Source: Trueperaceae bacterium
GTDB taxonomy: Bacteria > Deinococcota > Deinococci > Deinococcales > Trueperaceae
DNA: 38,773 nt
Assembly (NCBI GenBank): GCA_040905465.1
Contig: JBBDRK010000066.1
Coordinates: 19,836-58,608 of the forward strand
Reading direction: 5' to 3'
A program made the translations under genes and the position numbers. Under the pieces are notes generated by a model. The model searched no databases. It was not told the DNA's origin and saw only the letters and a program-made list of their open reading frames with translations. The first letter of the stretch is position 1. The number at the start of each line of letters is the position of its first letter. Below are positions 16,419 to 21,015 of this stretch, piece after piece.

Positions 16419-16745
16419 ATGACTGCCAAAGAGTTACTGCGCCGGATGCCGGGCGCGTTGGACCCGCAGGCCGCCGAGGGGACCGATGCCGTCATTCAGT
16501 ACGAGATCTCCGAGCCCACCTATCAGGTGCTGCGTGAGGGGGAGCTGACAGTTCACGACGGCCGGGCCGACAACCCTGACCTTACCGTGGCTGTCAGCGA
16601 CGAAAACCTCGTGCGGTTGTTTCGTGGCGAGTTGAACCCCATGACGGCATTCATGTCGGGAAAGCTCAAGGTCAACGGCGACATGGGTCTCGCTCAGCGA
16701 CTGGTCGGCCTGGTCGACCGCGAGAAGGTCTTTCAGCTCGTCTGA
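16419..16745 (+). CDS. SCP2 sterol/lipid-binding domain protein
   Basis: LFRGELNPMTAFMSGKLKVNGDMGLAQRL SCP2 signature. SD AGGAGG and a TAGACT -10-like box upstream; divergent from the acyl-CoA dehydrogenase operon. Confidence 0.9.
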   Translation: MTAKELLRRMPGALDPQAAEGTDAVIQYEISEPTYQVLREGELTVHDGRADNPDLTVAVSDENLVRLFRGELNPMTAFMSGKLKVNGDMGLAQRLVGLVDREKVFQLV

Positions 16746-19387
16746 CGCTCGACTTTGGCCGGCCTCGAGGTTCGCGCCAACGCCTTGGTGCGGTGCCTCA
16801 GTTTGTCCCTGTACATCCGTTGATCGCTGAGGCGCATCAGTTCGGCCGGAGAGGCCGCGTCGTCGGGGAGTAGCGCGATGCCGGCACTGGTATTGACGCG
16901 AGGAAATCCGTCGCAGCGTACCCTCTCCACCGCGTCGGCGACCCTGGCCAACAACGCGGCAGAGTCGGCGGGCTCGACATGCAGCAGGATCGCCGCGAAC
17001 TCATCGCCGCCGATGCGATAGACCCTGCCCCTCTCCCGCAACTCCGCCTCGACCGCGGCGGCGAAGCGGGTGAGCAGCACGTCGCCGCGTTCGTGCCCTT
17101 CCGTGTCGTTGATCGTCTTGAGCGCATCGAGGTCGAGTGTCAGCACGGCCAGCGAATCGTCGTGACGCCGTGCTCGCACCACCTCCACCGCCAGGTCCTG
17201 CTCGAACGCTCGGCGATTCGCCAGCCCGGTGAGCGGGTCGGAGTAGGCCATCGCATGAAGGCGTCTGGCCGACAGCTCAGCCTCGCGCCGGGCCCGCTCG
17301 AGCTCCTTGGTCCGGTCAGCCAGGATCTCGTCGAAGCGCCGCCCCAGGCCGGCGGGTGAAAGCTCGCCACTCCGGGCGTCTCGCCGGTCGACCAGGCGAG
17401 AGGATTCGCCGGCGTAAGCCTCCGGCACGAGGAACAGCGCCTCAGTCCCGGAAAAAGCCTCGAGACAGGCCGCCACCACCGTTGGATCGAACTGGTGTCC
17501 GCTGTTGCGCGCTATCTCTGCGAGCGCCTCGCCGGGTGACCACGCTCGCTTGTACGGCCTCTCGTGGGTGAGGGCGTCGAGAACGTCCGCCGTGGCCACG
17601 ATTCGCGCCGAGAGCGGTATTTCCTCACCCTCCAACCCCAGCGGGTATCCCTTTCCGTCCCAGCGCTCGTGGTGGGCCAGGGCGATCTCCTGTGCAAGCC
17701 TCAGGACGCCTGACTTGGCGCCCTCCAGGATCCGGGCCCCGATGACGGTGTGCGAGCAGATAGTCTCGAACTCCGAGATGCTCAGCTTCTCCGGTTTCAT
17801 CAGGACCGAGTCGGGAATCCCGATCTTGCCGAGGTCGTGGAGTCGAGCCGCGGAGGAGAGAAGCTGCACCTCGTCCTCGGGCCAACCGAGAGTGCGTGCA
17901 ATCGCCGCCGTGTAGCGGGCTACCCGCCAGGTATGCTCGCCGGTCTCGTCGTCGCGGTACTCGGCCGCGACCGCCAGCCGCGTCACGATCTCCCGTTGAG
18001 CCTCCTCCAGCTCGAGGGTCTGGGCGCGCACTCGCCCTTCGGCCTCCTCACGGGCTTGCTGCACCACCTCGAGCTGGTAAGCTTCGACCTCGTGCCTGGC
18101 GCGCTCGAGCTCGAACTGCATGGCGAGCCGGCCGGAACGTTGCTCGTTCTCCTGATTGAAGACCGCCTTCTCGACCCGATGGTACTCACGCTGGTGGTGC
18201 AGCGCCAGGCTCAGCTCTCCGCGCCGCTCGTATCCGACGGCCAGGAGCTCGTGAGCTTCGAACATGGACCGCTTCCGGTCGATGCGCCCGGCCAGCTCGA
18301 GACTGCGGTGCAGCAACTCAATCGCCTCCTCGGTGCGGTCGACGGCCAGGGACACGCGGCCGAGGTTCACCAGCGCGTCTATCTCCCCCTCCCTGTCCTC
18401 GATCTCCTGAGCCAGTTCCAGTGCCCGGCCGTACGAAGCAGTCGCCTGCTCGTGTTGCCCGAGCGCCGTGTGCACCTGGCCGATGCCGTCGAGGTTATCG
18501 ACCTCGTAATGACGTATCCCCAGGCGCCGGACCATGTCGAGCGCCTCTCCGAAGAGCTCCAGCGCCTCTGTCCAGCGCTCCAGTCGGCACGACAGGTTGG
18601 CCATCAGGTTGAGTGACGCCAGTTCGATCAGCGCGTCGTTCGCCTGGCGGCCGACCTCGCGCGCCTGCGTGAAATATCGCCTGACCGCCTCGTTGTCGCC
18701 GAGTTCGTAGTACAGCCGGCCGAGCCCAATGAGGTTGACCGCTTCGCTCTTGGTGCCCGGGGCGGCTTTCCGAATCAACTGGTAGGCAGACTGCAGGCAC
18801 TCCAGCGCCCGGGGGTGATCTCCCAGTTGGGTGTGCAGTCCGCCTATGTTGCTGAGTATGTTCGCCTGCCGCTCTTCGGCGCCCGCCCGTTGCGCCAGCG
18901 CCAGTCCGTTTTCGAGATGCTCCAGCGCTCCGATGTAGTCTCCGCGGGCACCGAGGACGGCCGCTTTCAGGTTCAGCGCGTCTGCCTCCGCCACGGACTC
19001 ACCGAGACTCCGTGCCAGCGCGAGAGCCTCGTCGCTGCGCTCTGCCGCCTGGTCGAGCAGGCCGAGCTCGCGTTCCACTCTCGCCAGGGCCAGGAGCGCT
19101 TCGACCGCGTCGCCCGGCTGGTCGGTAGCCACGAAGCCTTTGTGCGCCTCGGCTAGCGGCTCGAGCGCCTCCTTCAGGCGGCCGAGCCGGTACTCCTCGA
19201 CCCCTGCAAGCAGGAGTTCACCAGGGCTGGCGCCGCTGGGGCTGGTCTCACTGGGGCTGGTGCCACTGTGGCTGGTCTCACTGGGGCTACTTCCGCTGGT
19301 TCCACTGCCGCTGGTGCCACCATGGTCCTTGGCACTGGCTGCTGCGCGGCTGTCTGCGCCTGTCCGTCCGTGCGAGATCGCTTCCAT
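16733..19387 (-). CDS. Soluble TPR-HD-GYP-GGDEF c-di-GMP signalling protein
   Basis: About 400 aa of helical TPR-like repeats, a coiled coil, HD-GYP (EYRDDETGEH, HDLGKIG, HHERWDGKGYP, DVLDALTHERPYK), a coiled coil and GGDEF (DPLTGLANRR, DLDALKTIND, RIGGDEF). SD GAGGGGG. No obvious TM helix. Confidence 0.93.
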   Translation of the reverse strand: MEAISHGRTGADSRAAASAKDHGGTSGSGTSGSSPSETSHSGTSPSETSPSGASPGELLLAGVEEYRLGRLKEALEPLAEAHKGFVATDQPGDAVEALLALARVERELGLLDQAAERSDEALALARSLGESVAEADALNLKAAVLGARGDYIGALEHLENGLALAQRAGAEERQANILSNIGGLHTQLGDHPRALECLQSAYQLIRKAAPGTKSEAVNLIGLGRLYYELGDNEAVRRYFTQAREVGRQANDALIELASLNLMANLSCRLERWTEALELFGEALDMVRRLGIRHYEVDNLDGIGQVHTALGQHEQATASYGRALELAQEIEDREGEIDALVNLGRVSLAVDRTEEAIELLHRSLELAGRIDRKRSMFEAHELLAVGYERRGELSLALHHQREYHRVEKAVFNQENEQRSGRLAMQFELERARHEVEAYQLEVVQQAREEAEGRVRAQTLELEEAQREIVTRLAVAAEYRDDETGEHTWRVARYTAAIARTLGWPEDEVQLLSSAARLHDLGKIGIPDSVLMKPEKLSISEFETICSHTVIGARILEGAKSGVLRLAQEIALAHHERWDGKGYPLGLEGEEIPLSARIVATADVLDALTHERPYKRAWSPGEALAEIARNSGHQFDPTVVAACLEAFSGTEALFLVPEAYAGESSRLVDRRDARSGELSPAGLGRRFDEILADRTKELERARREAELSARRLHAMAYSDPLTGLANRRAFEQDLAVEVVRARRHDDSLAVLTLDLDALKTINDTEGHERGDVLLTRFAAAVEAELRERGRVYRIGGDEFAAILLHVEPADSAALLARVADAVERVRCDGFPRVNTSAGIALLPDDAASPAELMRLSDQRMYRDKLRHRTKALARTSRPAKVERQTS
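19221..19320 (-). repeat. Degenerate 15-nt tandem repeat encoding a Ser/Thr/Gly/Pro-rich N-terminal tail
   Basis: GTSGS-GTSGSSPS-ETSHS-GTSPS-ETSPS-GASPG. GGCTGGTCTCACTGGGGCT occurs twice, 30 nt apart. Confidence 0.75.
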
Positions 19388-19482
19388 GTCGCCCCCTCAG
19401 GGAAGCTGCATCTCGTCGTTACGAAGTACCCCCCAGGTACCGGTTCCGTTCAAGGCTCCAAGCGGCACTGTCATCAGCGTGG

Positions 19483-20949
19483 TCATTCGGACCCGTCCGT
19501 CGCCGCCCCGCTGACTCTCGCCATGAAGCTTTCGATGTTGATCCTGCCTTCGCCGAGCTGCCCTTGGTAATCCTCGTTCGAGTCACCCGAGTAGATGTCA
19601 TCGGAGGTGGCCATCAGGGTTCCCATCAAAGTCGATCGGGCCGTTCCGTGATCCTGACCGATCGCCAGGGCGAGCGCGCCCGAGGCGATCGCCGCGGACA
19701 TCGAGGTACCGCTCCAGGGTGCCTGAGACAGCGCCGGATACGGCCCGTAGATCGACACGCCGGGGGCCGCCAGTTCGACTTTCGTACGTGAGAAGTTGGC
19801 CGTGGCCGTCTTCTCGTTGTCCAGGCCGACACTGGTCAGCGAGAGCTTGTGGTCGGCGCCCAGCGCCACGTGCGCCATGCTGGCAGGATAGGTCACCATC
19901 CCGTCGTCGCTGTCGCCCGCGGAGGTGACCACCAGGACGCCTCGGGCGGTTGCGATGCGCAACGCTTCCAGGACGGCCTGCACCGGTTGGTGAGCGCCCA
20001 GGCTCAGGTTGATGACATCGGCTCCGTTGTCCACGGCCCAGTAGATCGCCTGCGCAAGGTCGGCGGCCTCGCCGACCCCATCGGGTCCGAGAACGCGCAG
20101 CGGCATGATGGTCGCCCGCGGGGCGATCTGCCGAACTATTCCGGCGACGTTGGTGCCGTGGCCGTAACCCCTGTTGTCCAGGTCGCCCGGCTCGTCATCG
20201 GGATAATCGTCGTTGGCGCGGAAGTCTTTCCATTCTTCCGTCGGGGACAACGCCTCGAAAAGGGCAGGATGTTTCAGGTCGACGCCTGTATCGATAATGG
20301 CGATCTTCACGCCGTAGCCCAGGTTGTCTGCCAGAACGTGCCCCTGCTGCAACCGGATCTGATGCCAGGCAGCGGTGTTCTCGGGCATCCACAGGAACTC
20401 GGCTTCTTCGCCGCCGCCCCACACAGTCGACAGGCCGCCACCCCACACCGTCGAGAGGCCGCCGCCCCACACGGTGGACATCCCGCCGCCCCACACCGTC
20501 GACATACCCCCGCCCCACACCGAGGACATGCCCTCCATTTCGACTGAGGCATCCGGACCCGCGAACACCTGCGCGTTGGGTTCCAACGAGTCGTCGGCAG
20601 CCAGTACCGAAAGACCAGCACGGTCCGCCGTCGCGTACTCCGAGTCGACTCCCAGGACCGCCACATCGCCGGGCTCCCAGAAGAGCAGCTCTCCACCGTA
20701 GCGTTCGGCCATCGCCTCGCCGGTATCGTCGGGACCGAGGCGCAAGGTGAGGAGGTACTCGGGGCCGGCGAGCCGGCCGGCGGGTGCCAACGACTCCTGG
20801 GGTTCCCGAACTCCGCTGCACGAGATAAGGAGGGTAAACGCTGCGGCCCCGGCAAGCGCCGTCGCGAAGCGCTGTGCCCGGGAGCGCGGCAATCGGAGAG
20901 CGTTCGGAGCGCGGCGGTCATGGAATAGTGCGGTAATGGGGAATATCAT
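19483..20949 (-). CDS. S8 subtilisin-family serine peptidase, predicted lipoprotein, with internal octapeptide repeats
   Basis: Triad IAIIDTG / GHGTNVAG / WSGTSMS, VINLSLG, and lipobox LISC (Cys codon 20820-20818). Start uncertain: ATG 20949 or ATG 20988. Confidence 0.9.
   Translation of the reverse strand: MIFPITALFHDRRAPNALRLPRSRAQRFATALAGAAAFTLLISCSGVREPQESLAPAGRLAGPEYLLTLRLGPDDTGEAMAERYGGELLFWEPGDVAVLGVDSEYATADRAGLSVLAADDSLEPNAQVFAGPDASVEMEGMSSVWGGGMSTVWGGGMSTVWGGGLSTVWGGGLSTVWGGGEEAEFLWMPENTAAWHQIRLQQGHVLADNLGYGVKIAIIDTGVDLKHPALFEALSPTEEWKDFRANDDYPDDEPGDLDNRGYGHGTNVAGIVRQIAPRATIMPLRVLGPDGVGEAADLAQAIYWAVDNGADVINLSLGAHQPVQAVLEALRIATARGVLVVTSAGDSDDGMVTYPASMAHVALGADHKLSLTSVGLDNEKTATANFSRTKVELAAPGVSIYGPYPALSQAPWSGTSMSAAIASGALALAIGQDHGTARSTLMGTLMATSDDIYSGDSNEDYQGQLGEGRINIESFMARVSGAATDGSE
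20410..20529 (-). repeat. Five in-frame 24-nt tandem repeats encoding (M/L)S(S/T)VWGGG
   Basis: MSSVWGGG-MSTVWGGG-MSTVWGGG-LSTVWGGG-LSTVWGGG. Units differ mostly at synonymous positions. Confidence 0.97.
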
Positions 20950-20993
20950 TGCGATACCATCTCGCGACGAGTTTAGGTCCGCGGTCATTACGG

Positions 20994-21015
20994 AATTCTT
21001 ACAAAATTCTTACAA
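20994..21015 (-). promoter_or_regulatory. Perfect 11-bp tandem direct repeat upstream of the S8 gene, candidate transcription-factor site
   Basis: AATTCTTACAA x2 (minus strand TGTAAG-N5-TGTAAG), an AT-rich island in GC-rich DNA. TAAACT -10-like hexamer at 20975-20970. Confidence 0.6.

Follow-up and report, generated by a model that had tools for sequence, protein, structure and literature searches.

Conserved pairing of a repeat-bearing S8 subtilase with a TPR protein carrying c-di-GMP enzyme domains suggests a candidate peptide-signalling cassette in Deinococcota

To characterize an unusual two-gene unit in Deinococcota, we analysed a 38,773-nucleotide stretch of DNA (hereafter the window) from a Trueperaceae bacterium (assembly GCA_040905465.1, contig JBBDRK010000066.1, positions 19,836 to 58,608). 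The unit lies on the minus strand of the window and consists of an ORF for an S8 subtilase (positions 19483..20988, 501 aa; Pfam Peptidase_S8, E 1.1e-36) followed, after a 95-nt spacer (19388..19482), by an ORF for an 884-aa protein (16733..19387) containing TPR (TPR_12, E 5.6e-39), HD-GYP (HD_5, E 1.1e-34) and GGDEF (E 6.9e-34) domains. The neighbouring genes are housekeeping genes (aspartate kinase, an SCP2-like gene, two acyl-CoA dehydrogenases and ETF), and among the seven neighbours scanned we found no sigma factor. A first-pass annotation, made from the sequence alone, had described this arrangement of an exported protease with five Trp-containing octapeptides beside a soluble TPR-HD-GYP-GGDEF protein, and what it described is indeed present, on the strand and at the spacing it gave. 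Just upstream of the S8 ORF, at 20994..21015, are two copies of an AT-rich 11-bp direct repeat that may be a promoter or operator, a function that is only inferred; the repeat occurs nowhere else in the genome, and so no regulon could be derived from it.

The S8 protein has the hallmarks of an exported pro-subtilisin. One correction concerns its start: the ATG at 20988 gives a 56-residue leader, whereas a TTG at 20892, which we infer is the likely true start, would give a canonical 25-residue lipoprotein signal peptide (20818..20892) ending in the lipobox LLIS-C57. The strongest hydrophobic window lies at residues 41-60, and the Cys is invariant in 14 of 14 aligned relatives, although lipidation itself is inferred. 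The signal peptide is followed by a propeptide (20542..20817, residues 58-149) with a predicted I9-like beta-alpha-beta-beta fold; Pfam does not call Inhibitor_I9 here, but the AF2 model places the strands and helix at model residues 44-103 with a pLDDT of about 82. The catalytic domain (within 19486..20409, which also includes the junction EEAEFLW|MPENT) contains the triad motifs DTG (from residue 233), HGT (from 277) and GTS (from 427), and the corresponding Asp, His and Ser columns (D199, H243 and S395 of the aligned sequence) are invariant in 14 of 14 relatives. The model matches unautoprocessed pro-subtilisin E over model residues 42-456 (Z 40.9, rmsd 2.2, 332 aligned) and thermitase (Z 39, rmsd 1.5), and propeptide and catalytic domain are aligned together to pro-subtilisin E and pro-Tk-subtilisin over model range 42-460.

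Between the propeptide and the catalytic domain, at 20410..20529 (residues 154-193), are five tandem octapeptides, (M/L)S(S/T)VWGGG, which read MSSVWGGG once, MSTVWGGG twice and LSTVWGGG twice, in that order. TRF detects the underlying repeat at 20410-20532, with a period of 24 nt, 5.1 copies and 83% matches. The array has a pLDDT below 30 and is therefore predicted to be disordered, and it occupies the position at which pro-subtilisins carry the propeptide tail that is cut at maturation. In particular, residue 1 of thermitase aligns to model residue 162 (S8 residue 196) and residue 4 of BPN' to model residue 166 (S8 residue 200), such that the mature N-termini of these enzymes align 3-7 residues after the last unit. 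The same Trp recurs at period 8 in the motif before the first unit (A-W-M-N-G) and at the junction (x-W-M-P-E-N-T).

The partner protein is predicted to be cytoplasmic, in that it has no signal peptide and no 19-residue window exceeds a Kyte-Doolittle value of 1.56. Its TPR array (18188..19222, residues 56-400) comprises eight repeats of about 40 residues that are predicted to form a superhelix of the peptide-channel type (pLDDT 95.5, 18 helices). The HD-GYP domain (17477..17965, residues 475-637) has intact HD (HDLGK, from residue 517) and GYP (residue 580) motifs, and the GGDEF domain (16787..17248, residues 714-867) has an intact GGDEF motif at residue 793 with no RxxD motif five residues before it; phosphodiesterase and cyclase activities are inferred from these motifs alone. 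The best Foldseek matches of the TPR array are LGN/Pins TPR domains (TM 0.70/0.83), with Rap of phi3T (structures 8rsv, 8rtc and 8rst) appearing only at ranks 45-50 (TMq 0.53, against 0.70 for LGN). A profile search of PDB sequences identified LGN, consensus TPR and kinesin light chain, with no Rap, NprR, PlcR, PrgX or AimR among the 60 listed of 263 hits, and NCBIfam gave no RRNPP model. (Note that a HaaT hit in NCBIfam is far below its cut-off and reflects only TPR similarity.)

We next asked whether the pairing is conserved, the absence of conserved linkage having been named beforehand as grounds for rejecting the signalling idea. The linkage holds. The Trueperaceae genome contains exactly three S8 genes with propeptide and repeats, each with its own peptide, and three TPR paralogues, adjacent one to one, with a spacer of 9 nt in the two paralogous cassettes. 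A close S8 relative is carried by 166 of 364 Deinococcota genomes, and of 40 places sampled from the list of S8 relatives, 38 have a TPR homologue adjacent, 35 of them with HD-GYP. In the reverse direction, 25 of 37 TPR-family places in 61 related genomes lie within 3 kb of an S8-family place, as compared by hand. Among 47 partners, all 47 have TPR, 44 HD-GYP, 21 GGDEF and 2 a histidine-kinase ATPase; that is, the TPR array is the constant element whereas the output varies, as expected if the protease or its peptide communicates with the TPR. No CHAT domain was found among the Pfam hits of the window's partner or the 25 commonest families of the 47 partners. The pairing is not uniform, however, as most S8 genes with 7-mer-type units lack an adjacent TPR gene (7 of 16 Deinococcota loci, two of them cut by contig ends). 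One locus (L107) has two unit types followed by two TPR-HD-GYP genes. In a second phylum, we found 12 acidobacterial loci in which an exported S8 with S-W-x-x-G-x hexamers in the same position lies directly after a cytoplasmic TPR-CHAT gene.

All 67 family genes that we read carry 2-8 tandem 7- or 8-residue units ending W-x-G-G, with 60 distinct main units in 64 genes; Trp is present in 100%, and the last Gly in 99%, of 191 octamer units. Copies within a gene differ heavily at synonymous sites but hardly in protein (pooled pS 0.571 against pN 0.152 in 64 genes; pS 0.47 against pN 0.07 in the window gene), and several genes show pN 0 with pS 0.69-0.87, indicating that the copies are old, with near-saturated synonymous divergence, but have been kept alike in protein. 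A region search of 5.8 billion proteins returned only five relatives of the propeptide-plus-repeat part, named 'S8 family peptidase' or 'thermitase', and RefSeq calls the pair 'S8 family serine peptidase' and 'HD domain-containing phosphohydrolase'. Our literature searches found no paper describing this cassette.

To look for evidence that the units and the TPR arrays evolve together, we compared peptide and TPR distances across cassettes. Peptide distance follows TPR distance after allowing for the catalytic domain of the protease itself (partial r 0.30, permutation p 0.0002, 45 cassettes), but the signal is fragile: using ranks on the 36 cassettes that also have HD-GYP, the peptide follows the TPR (0.165) and the S8 catalytic domain (0.134) about equally. 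Moreover, two cassettes (L012 and L130) differ by 13% in TPR but at three of the four variable peptide positions. Pherotype-like diversification of the concave TPR face is not supported, as the presumed concave A helices (assigned from a secondary-structure list rather than from model coordinates) are more conserved than the B helices (entropy 2.12 against 2.38), and in close cassette pairs with different peptides changes are not enriched in A helices (for example, 10 of 135 in A and 19 of 139 in B for the pair L109/L112). A predicted complex of the TPR domain with the 51-residue repeat segment scored 0.01 in a run without controls and is neither for nor against binding.

Taken together, these findings raise the possibility that the two genes form a conserved signalling cassette. 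In the reading we favour, the subtilase is exported and lipid-anchored through the N-terminus of its propeptide, and processing at the junction, where subtilases cut themselves before degrading their propeptide, would set free several copies of one 7-8-residue Trp peptide per protease molecule, in the register (M/L)STVWGGG or GGG(M/L)STVW. The peptide would then be taken up again by one of the many Opp/Dpp-type importers and bind the concave channel of the neighbouring cytoplasmic TPR superhelix, changing the activity of the HD-GYP phosphodiesterase (and of the GGDEF cyclase where present) and so the c-di-GMP level. Our analyses establish the anatomy of the cassette, the conserved pairing, the selection acting on the copies and the position of the array; autoprocessing and cleavage at each unit, release, import, binding, lipidation and any effect on the enzyme are inferred from genome comparison alone, and we regard this reading as tentative, somewhat less likely than not to be correct. 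The first-pass annotation had proposed much the same route, with the TPR protein likened to RRNPP receptors and switched between cyclase and phosphodiesterase activity, and its interpretation is only partly supported: the linkage, the constancy of the TPR array, the selection and the position of the array support it, but RRNPP membership is not established, and a cyclase/phosphodiesterase switch is speculation, only 21 of 47 partners having a GGDEF domain against 44 of 47 with HD-GYP. Import also draws little support from gene context, because an Opp-type importer is adjacent in only one of the three cassette places of the genome (C72, which holds a tandem cassette pair) and in 1 of the 40 sampled places (L117); with about 30 such binding-protein genes in the genome this adjacency may be chance, and we reject it as a conserved feature.

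Other readings account for part of the evidence. The TPR superhelix might instead bind the whole unprocessed array of the S8 precursor before export, or of a non-exported fraction, so that the c-di-GMP enzyme reports how much precursor is waiting in the cytoplasm or chaperones it, with no need for release or import. The closest TPR relatives, LGN and kinesin light chain, do bind stretches of intact partner proteins rather than free oligopeptides, LGN/Pins holding extended segments of 25-45 residues in an eight-TPR channel against arrays of 16-64 residues here; mixed A-B-A arrays exist in seven Deinococcus loci; and docking explains the pairing and the selection on the copies equally well. However, the lipobox Cys is invariant and every aligned family member has a signal peptide, which would place the array outside the cell; the array sits exactly at the processing junction; and non-identical TPRs would not require identical units, yet identity is what selection keeps. 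We consider docking unlikely, though the strongest of the alternatives. Somewhat less likely still, the units may be only a processing linker, that is, repeated copies of the maturation site that time or stage propeptide removal or space the catalytic domain from the membrane, with the TPR-HD-GYP gene a co-regulated neighbour that senses something else. The predicted disorder and position of the array, the resemblance of the conserved part of each unit (hydrophobic-W-small-G-G) to the junction itself, and the lack of demonstrated binding are consistent with this view, but a linker does not explain why the variable positions are held identical among old copies within a gene yet differ between lineages, why the TPR array remains the neighbour through changes of output domain and across two phyla, or why cassette duplications keep one protease per TPR gene.

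Least likely in our view is that the protease cuts environmental or cell-surface proteins and the TPR protein senses the imported products, the internal repeats being irrelevant to sensing. One paralogous cassette pair does follow a peptide-uptake and peptidase operon (S58, M20, SBP_bac_5 and two permeases), and M20 peptidase genes lie next to two 7-mer-type S8 genes, but this reading does not account for the universal presence of the repeats or the selection on them, and importer adjacency is rare. Two further ideas were examined. A RiPP-type reading, with the units as Trp-modified core peptides, found no support in that no radical-SAM or other maturase gene was present among the neighbours scanned, and LapD/LapG-type inside-out control was rejected because the partner has no predicted membrane segment.

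Peptide signals read by cytoplasmic TPR receptors are known essentially from Bacillota and their phages, and c-di-GMP enzymes are usually fed by small-molecule, redox, light or phosphorylation inputs. If the favoured reading is correct, a cassette whose S8 gene has close relatives in nearly half of the sampled Deinococcota genomes would tie an exported, self-processing protease with a built-in peptide array to an HD-GYP/GGDEF enzyme, and so provide a new input class for c-di-GMP, a first candidate peptide autoinducer system for the Deinococcus-Thermus group, and a new way to encode a signal, inside the maturase. The hypothesis is directly testable, because cultured carriers exist (Deinococcus psychrotolerans, D. 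gobiensis and Calidithermus chliarophilus). More doubtful, but possible, is a class of peptide signalling spanning phyla, in which exported subtilases carry their own multi-copy autoinducer in the propeptide tail, release it as they mature, and are read by an LGN-like TPR receptor encoded next door with interchangeable outputs (HD-GYP/GGDEF or a kinase in Deinococcota, CHAT protease with a sigma factor in Acidobacteria). This would place peptide quorum sensing, with direct entry into c-di-GMP turnover, in bacteria where none is known.

Several known systems share elements of the cassette. TPR domains are tied to c-di-GMP control in Vibrio vulnificus (rcbAB; PMC12282931), although no protease or repeat peptide appears in the title and opening of the abstract of that paper. 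The gene context of ECF54 sigma factors (PMC8999054; see also Huang 2015 and Casas-Pastor 2021) likewise has an S8 protease gene conserved next to a TPR-bearing protein, and in our acidobacterial loci that S8 also has tandem peptide units in the same position; there, however, the partner output is a CHAT protease with a sigma factor. For that context the literature proposes only 'proteolysis', without mention of the repeats in the passage considered, and the signalling hypothesis would offer a ready explanation for this unexplained context. In LGN/Pins and kinesin light chain, eight TPRs of about 40 residues form a superhelix whose inner channel holds extended peptides, and kinesin light chain recognises Trp-centred short motifs; these are eukaryotic scaffold proteins without an enzymatic output, and the similarity is one of repeat class rather than evidence of shared function.

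With RRNPP(A) quorum sensing, and especially Rap-Phr systems, the cassette shares a predicted cytoplasmic TPR-type receptor encoded next to the source of an exported peptide, several copies of the (here candidate) peptide in one precursor, and whole-cassette duplication with diverged peptides (as in the C72 tandem pair); indeed, S8 proteases mature Phr pheromones outside the cell, and tandem pheromone copies are known in RRNPPA propeptides (PMC11343458). It differs in that there is no separate small propeptide gene, the only candidate peptides lying inside the protease; in that the TPR is closer to LGN and kinesin light chain than to Rap; in that the outputs are HD-GYP, GGDEF or a kinase ATPase and not an HTH or phosphatase; and in its host phylum, Deinococcota rather than Bacillota. 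The yeast alpha-factor precursor similarly holds several identical copies of a signalling peptide that are set free by a subtilase-family protease, the S8 protease Kex2, but there precursor and protease are separate proteins and the receptor is a surface GPCR, not a cytoplasmic TPR protein. Finally, the S8 protein has the predicted propeptide and catalytic-domain fold of pro-subtilisin E and pro-Tk-subtilisin (PDB 3whi and 2e1p; Z about 40), in which the propeptide tail leads into the active site and autoprocessing is followed by propeptide degradation; here the tail is expanded into 2-8 identical units, and the propeptide carries the inferred lipid anchor.

Two minus-strand genes separated by 95 nt make up the unit under study. 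The first (19483-20988, 501 aa) encodes a Peptidase_S8 protein (Pfam E 1.1e-36), and the second (16733-19387, 884 aa) encodes a protein with a TPR array, an HD-GYP domain (HD_5, E 1.1e-34) and a GGDEF domain (E 6.9e-34). Tandem Repeats Finder reported a 24-nt unit present in 5.1 copies at 20410-20532, which encodes MSSVWGGG MSTVWGGG MSTVWGGG LSTVWGGG LSTVWGGG, residues 154-193 of the protease. The protease contains the triad motifs DTG (from residue 233), HGT (from 277) and GTS (from 427), together with a lipobox, L-I-S-C57. The partner retains its HD, GYP and GGDEF motifs, and none of its 19-residue windows reaches the hydrophobicity of a membrane helix. The neighboring genes encode aspartate kinase, an SCP2 protein, two acyl-CoA dehydrogenases and ETF. 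The first-pass annotation had described a two-gene minus-strand unit among housekeeping genes, comprising an exported S8 protease with five near-identical Trp-containing octapeptides and a soluble TPR-HD-GYP-GGDEF protein, and this observation proved correct in every point that could be checked.

Some further features of the two genes are apparent from the sequence. The ATG start of the S8 ORF gives an unusually long leader of 56 residues, whereas a TTG at 20892 (residue 33 of the ORF) would give a canonical lipoprotein signal peptide of 25 residues. Just upstream of the S8 ORF, at 20994-21015, lies an AT-rich 11-bp direct repeat (two copies) that is unique in the genome; AT-rich stretches with TGTAA/TGTAT motifs also precede both of the other S8 genes of this type in the genome (on contig C72, see below), raising the possibility that these stretches are promoters. 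The partner protein begins with a Ser/Thr/Pro/Gly-rich low-complexity stretch of about 55 residues (window 19224-19320), which is encoded by 15/30-nt periodic repeats and is not part of the aligned TPR region of relatives.

To place the repeats within the protease, we built an AF2 model on 14 relatives. The model folds a propeptide (model residues 44-103, pLDDT about 82) and the catalytic domain, but leaves model residues 110-165 (S8 residues 144-199, which contain the array) below pLDDT 30. The best structural matches are unautoprocessed pro-subtilisins, namely pro-subtilisin E (Z 40.9, rmsd 2.2, 332 residues aligned) and pro-Tk-subtilisin (Z 39.7), both of which cover propeptide and catalytic domain together. 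Residue 1 of mature thermitase aligns to S8 residue 196 and residue 4 of subtilisin BPN' to residue 200, whereas the array ends at residue 193. The units therefore occupy the propeptide tail, the segment that subtilases cut at maturation before degrading the propeptide. Because the putative lipid-anchor Cys belongs to the propeptide, we infer that processing would also free the catalytic domain from the membrane.

The genome under study contains two more copies in tandem on another contig (G000:C72:1900-15500, locus L101). One consists of an S8 gene with KSMIWSGG x4 followed after 9 nt by a TPR-HD-GYP-GGDEF gene, and the other of an S8 gene with (S/A)STVWAGG x4 followed after 9 nt by a TPR-HD-GYP gene. 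Both lie directly after a peptide-uptake and peptidase operon (Peptidase_S58, M20, SBP_bac_5 and two permeases). A tblastn search of the whole genome found exactly three S8 genes with this propeptide and three TPR paralogues, paired one to one. Named relatives place the organism in Trueperaceae. Among the matches returned by a scan of named records, those that include the propeptide were confined to Deinococcota records (Truepera, Deinococcus, Thermaceae, Meiothermus), apart from one acidobacterial row of 27% identity that starts at residue 39. Of 364 genomes of the phylum, 166 have a match at E <= 1e-35: 95 of 125 in the Deinococcus-like family, 33 of 127 in the family of the window itself, and 0 of 23 in one family. 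Cultured, non-pathogenic carriers include Deinococcus psychrotolerans S14-83, D. gobiensis I-0 and Calidithermus chliarophilus.

Every one of the 67 family genes that we read carries two to eight tandem units of seven or eight residues. In 191 octamer units, W is present at 100%, the final G at 99% and the G before it at 79%, whereas the first four positions vary; there are 60 different main units among 64 genes. Seven Deinococcus loci (L024, L114, L117, L120, L127, L130 and L134) have mixed arrays of the form A-B-A, for example SRTIWAGG NFLAWSGG SRTIWAGG, so that two different peptides are encoded in one protease with only one TPR gene seen next to it. A degenerate unit (G-x-x-A-W-M-N-G) often precedes the array, and the junction after it reads x-W-(M/L)-P-E-N-T, such that W recurs at period 8 from the end of the propeptide to the mature N-terminus. 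The sequence is compatible with putative cutting either after W or after G-G.

To ask whether the copies are recent products of slippage, we compared the units within each gene. Over 64 genes, the pooled synonymous difference among copies within one gene is 0.571 per site and the non-synonymous difference 0.152. Many genes have identical units with near-saturated synonymous divergence, including RSNAWAGG x4 (pS 0.72, pN 0), KISMWSGG x3 (pS 0.87, pN 0) and SVTAWSGG x5 (pS 0.69, pN 0); for the window itself pS is 0.47 and pN 0.07. The copies are therefore not recent slippage products. Each copy is held to the same peptide, including at positions that differ freely between lineages, which a spacer would not require but a multi-copy ligand for one binding site would.

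To determine whether the linkage between the two genes is conserved, we picked 40 places from 150 listed of 373 matches in the phylum, before seeing their surroundings, and examined 7 kb on each side; the choice leans towards the best-scoring, octamer-type relatives. A homologue of the TPR array of the window lies next to the S8 gene in 38 of the 40, and 35 of these also have HD-GYP. The exceptions are loci L114 and L121. In L121 (G060:C1:3624664-3640052), an S8 gene with SVTAWSGG x5 is followed by a 1091-aa protein with an eCIS_core domain instead of the TPR gene, and a TPR homologue lies about 10 kb further downstream, which suggests an insertion into the cassette. Of the 16 Deinococcota loci from the named collection, nine have the TPR neighbor (three of these being places already in the set of 40) and seven do not; those seven are of the heptamer type, and two of them are cut by contig ends. 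In the reverse direction, 25 of 37 TPR-family places (E <= 1e-25) in 61 related genomes lie within 3 kb of a listed S8-family place, as judged by comparing the two lists by hand. At least five of the twelve unlinked places sit within 5 kb of a contig start in fragmented assemblies, and one of the twelve is in an unpublished genome (G034) on which nothing else here rests.

Of 47 partner proteins, 47 have TPRs, 44 HD-GYP, 21 GGDEF and 2 a histidine-kinase ATPase domain; one has TPR plus GGDEF without HD-GYP. The TPR array is thus the constant element and the output is exchangeable, which points to the TPR array as the part that is functionally tied to the protease. The AF2 model of the array is confident (pLDDT 95.5) and consists of eight repeats of about 40 residues followed by a long helix that leads to the HD-GYP domain. 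Foldseek ranked LGN/Pins TPR domains first (TM 0.70/0.83, rmsd 3.0-3.5), whereas the Rap receptor of phage phi3T with bound pheromone appeared at ranks 45-50 (TMq 0.53). A profile search of PDB sequences gave LGN, consensus TPRs, O-GlcNAc transferase and kinesin light chain, with no RRNPP receptor among 60 of the 263 hits. The array is therefore predicted to be a peptide-channel type of TPR superhelix, but we cannot assign it to the RRNPP family.

We next tested whether peptide and TPR array vary together. For 45 octamer cassettes, the distance between main units (four variable positions) correlates with TPR distance after allowing for the catalytic domain of the protease itself (partial r 0.30, 1 of 5001 permutations as high), whereas the converse is nil (0.03, p 0.31). 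With ranks, however, on the 36 cassettes that also have HD-GYP, the two partial correlations are similar (0.165 and 0.134) and the HD-GYP domain adds nothing; moreover, partial Mantel tests on related sequences overstate significance. The presumed concave A helices are more conserved than the B helices, and close pairs with different peptides do not concentrate their changes in A helices. Two of the cassettes, L012 and L130, differ by 13% in TPR yet at three of the four variable peptide positions. We therefore treat co-variation as weak support only. One anecdotal case fits the idea of a ligand: at locus L107 (G277:C16), one S8 gene with two unit types (QSKIWAGG x2, RSSIWSGG x2) is followed by two TPR-HD-GYP genes in a row.

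A parallel exists outside the phylum. Among the non-Deinococcota loci returned in the scan of named records, twelve acidobacterial ones (Pyrinomonadaceae, Blastocatellia, Chloracidobacterium; loci L039, L041-L044, L054, L058, L067, L070, L073, L082 and L085) share one layout. They encode an S8 protease with a signal peptide, a propeptide and two or three S-W-x-x-G-x hexamers in the same place (P-W-T-x-G-x plus two S-W-x-x-G-x hexamers between propeptide and mature domain), and each lies directly downstream of a TPR_12-CHAT gene whose product has no signal peptide or membrane segment; L039 also has a sigma-70 family gene downstream. Other acidobacterial S8 genes (L098, L091, L094, L081, L049 and L086) carry two or three Q-(S/H)-T-x-A-x-x-D units inside the loop between the catalytic Asp and His. 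All of these but L086 have a small (240-350 aa) HD-GYP gene immediately downstream, and those for which the search gave a hit have a TPR-CHAT gene upstream. Subtilase and CHAT genes are a conserved, untested context of ECF54 sigma factors (PMC8999054). In a Planctomycetota MAG (locus L050), an S8 gene carries a run of x-W-D-D-x pentamers about 200 residues before the catalytic Asp, with a CHAT hit about 3 kb downstream.

The most economical way to connect an exported, putatively lipid-anchored protease with a soluble cytoplasmic TPR enzyme would be that maturation sets free the units, that these are imported, that they bind the TPR channel, and that binding alters HD-GYP (and GGDEF) activity. 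The arrangement and conservation of the genes, the constraint on the copies and the predicted position of the array are results of our analyses, whereas lipidation, cleavage, release, import, binding and the activities of the enzymes themselves are inferred. This four-step reading is the best of those considered, although we hold it only tentatively, and the interpretation of the first-pass annotation, that autoprocessing releases a peptide that is re-imported and switches the partner, is partly supported. That the array is the ligand of the TPR protein in some form, whether released or as precursor, we consider somewhat more likely than not.

The main rival, docking of the precursor inside the cell, would require neither release nor import, but we regard it as unlikely. 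Less likely still is that the array is a mere processing linker and the TPR gene a co-regulated neighbor, since a spacer would not require that each copy be held to the same peptide. We consider it least likely that the partner senses other products of the protease. Adjacency to an importer, as seen at the C72 cassettes, is not conserved.

Public records name the genes only as 'S8 family peptidase', 'thermitase' and 'HD domain-containing phosphohydrolase', and full-text searches of the literature found no description of this cassette. The nearest published system is RRNPPA signaling with tandemly duplicated pheromones that are matured by extracellular proteases (PMC11343458). Compared with that system, the cassette, if it functions as we propose, would differ in that the signal lies inside the maturase, the receptor is of a different TPR class, the output is c-di-GMP turnover, and the host belongs to another phylum.
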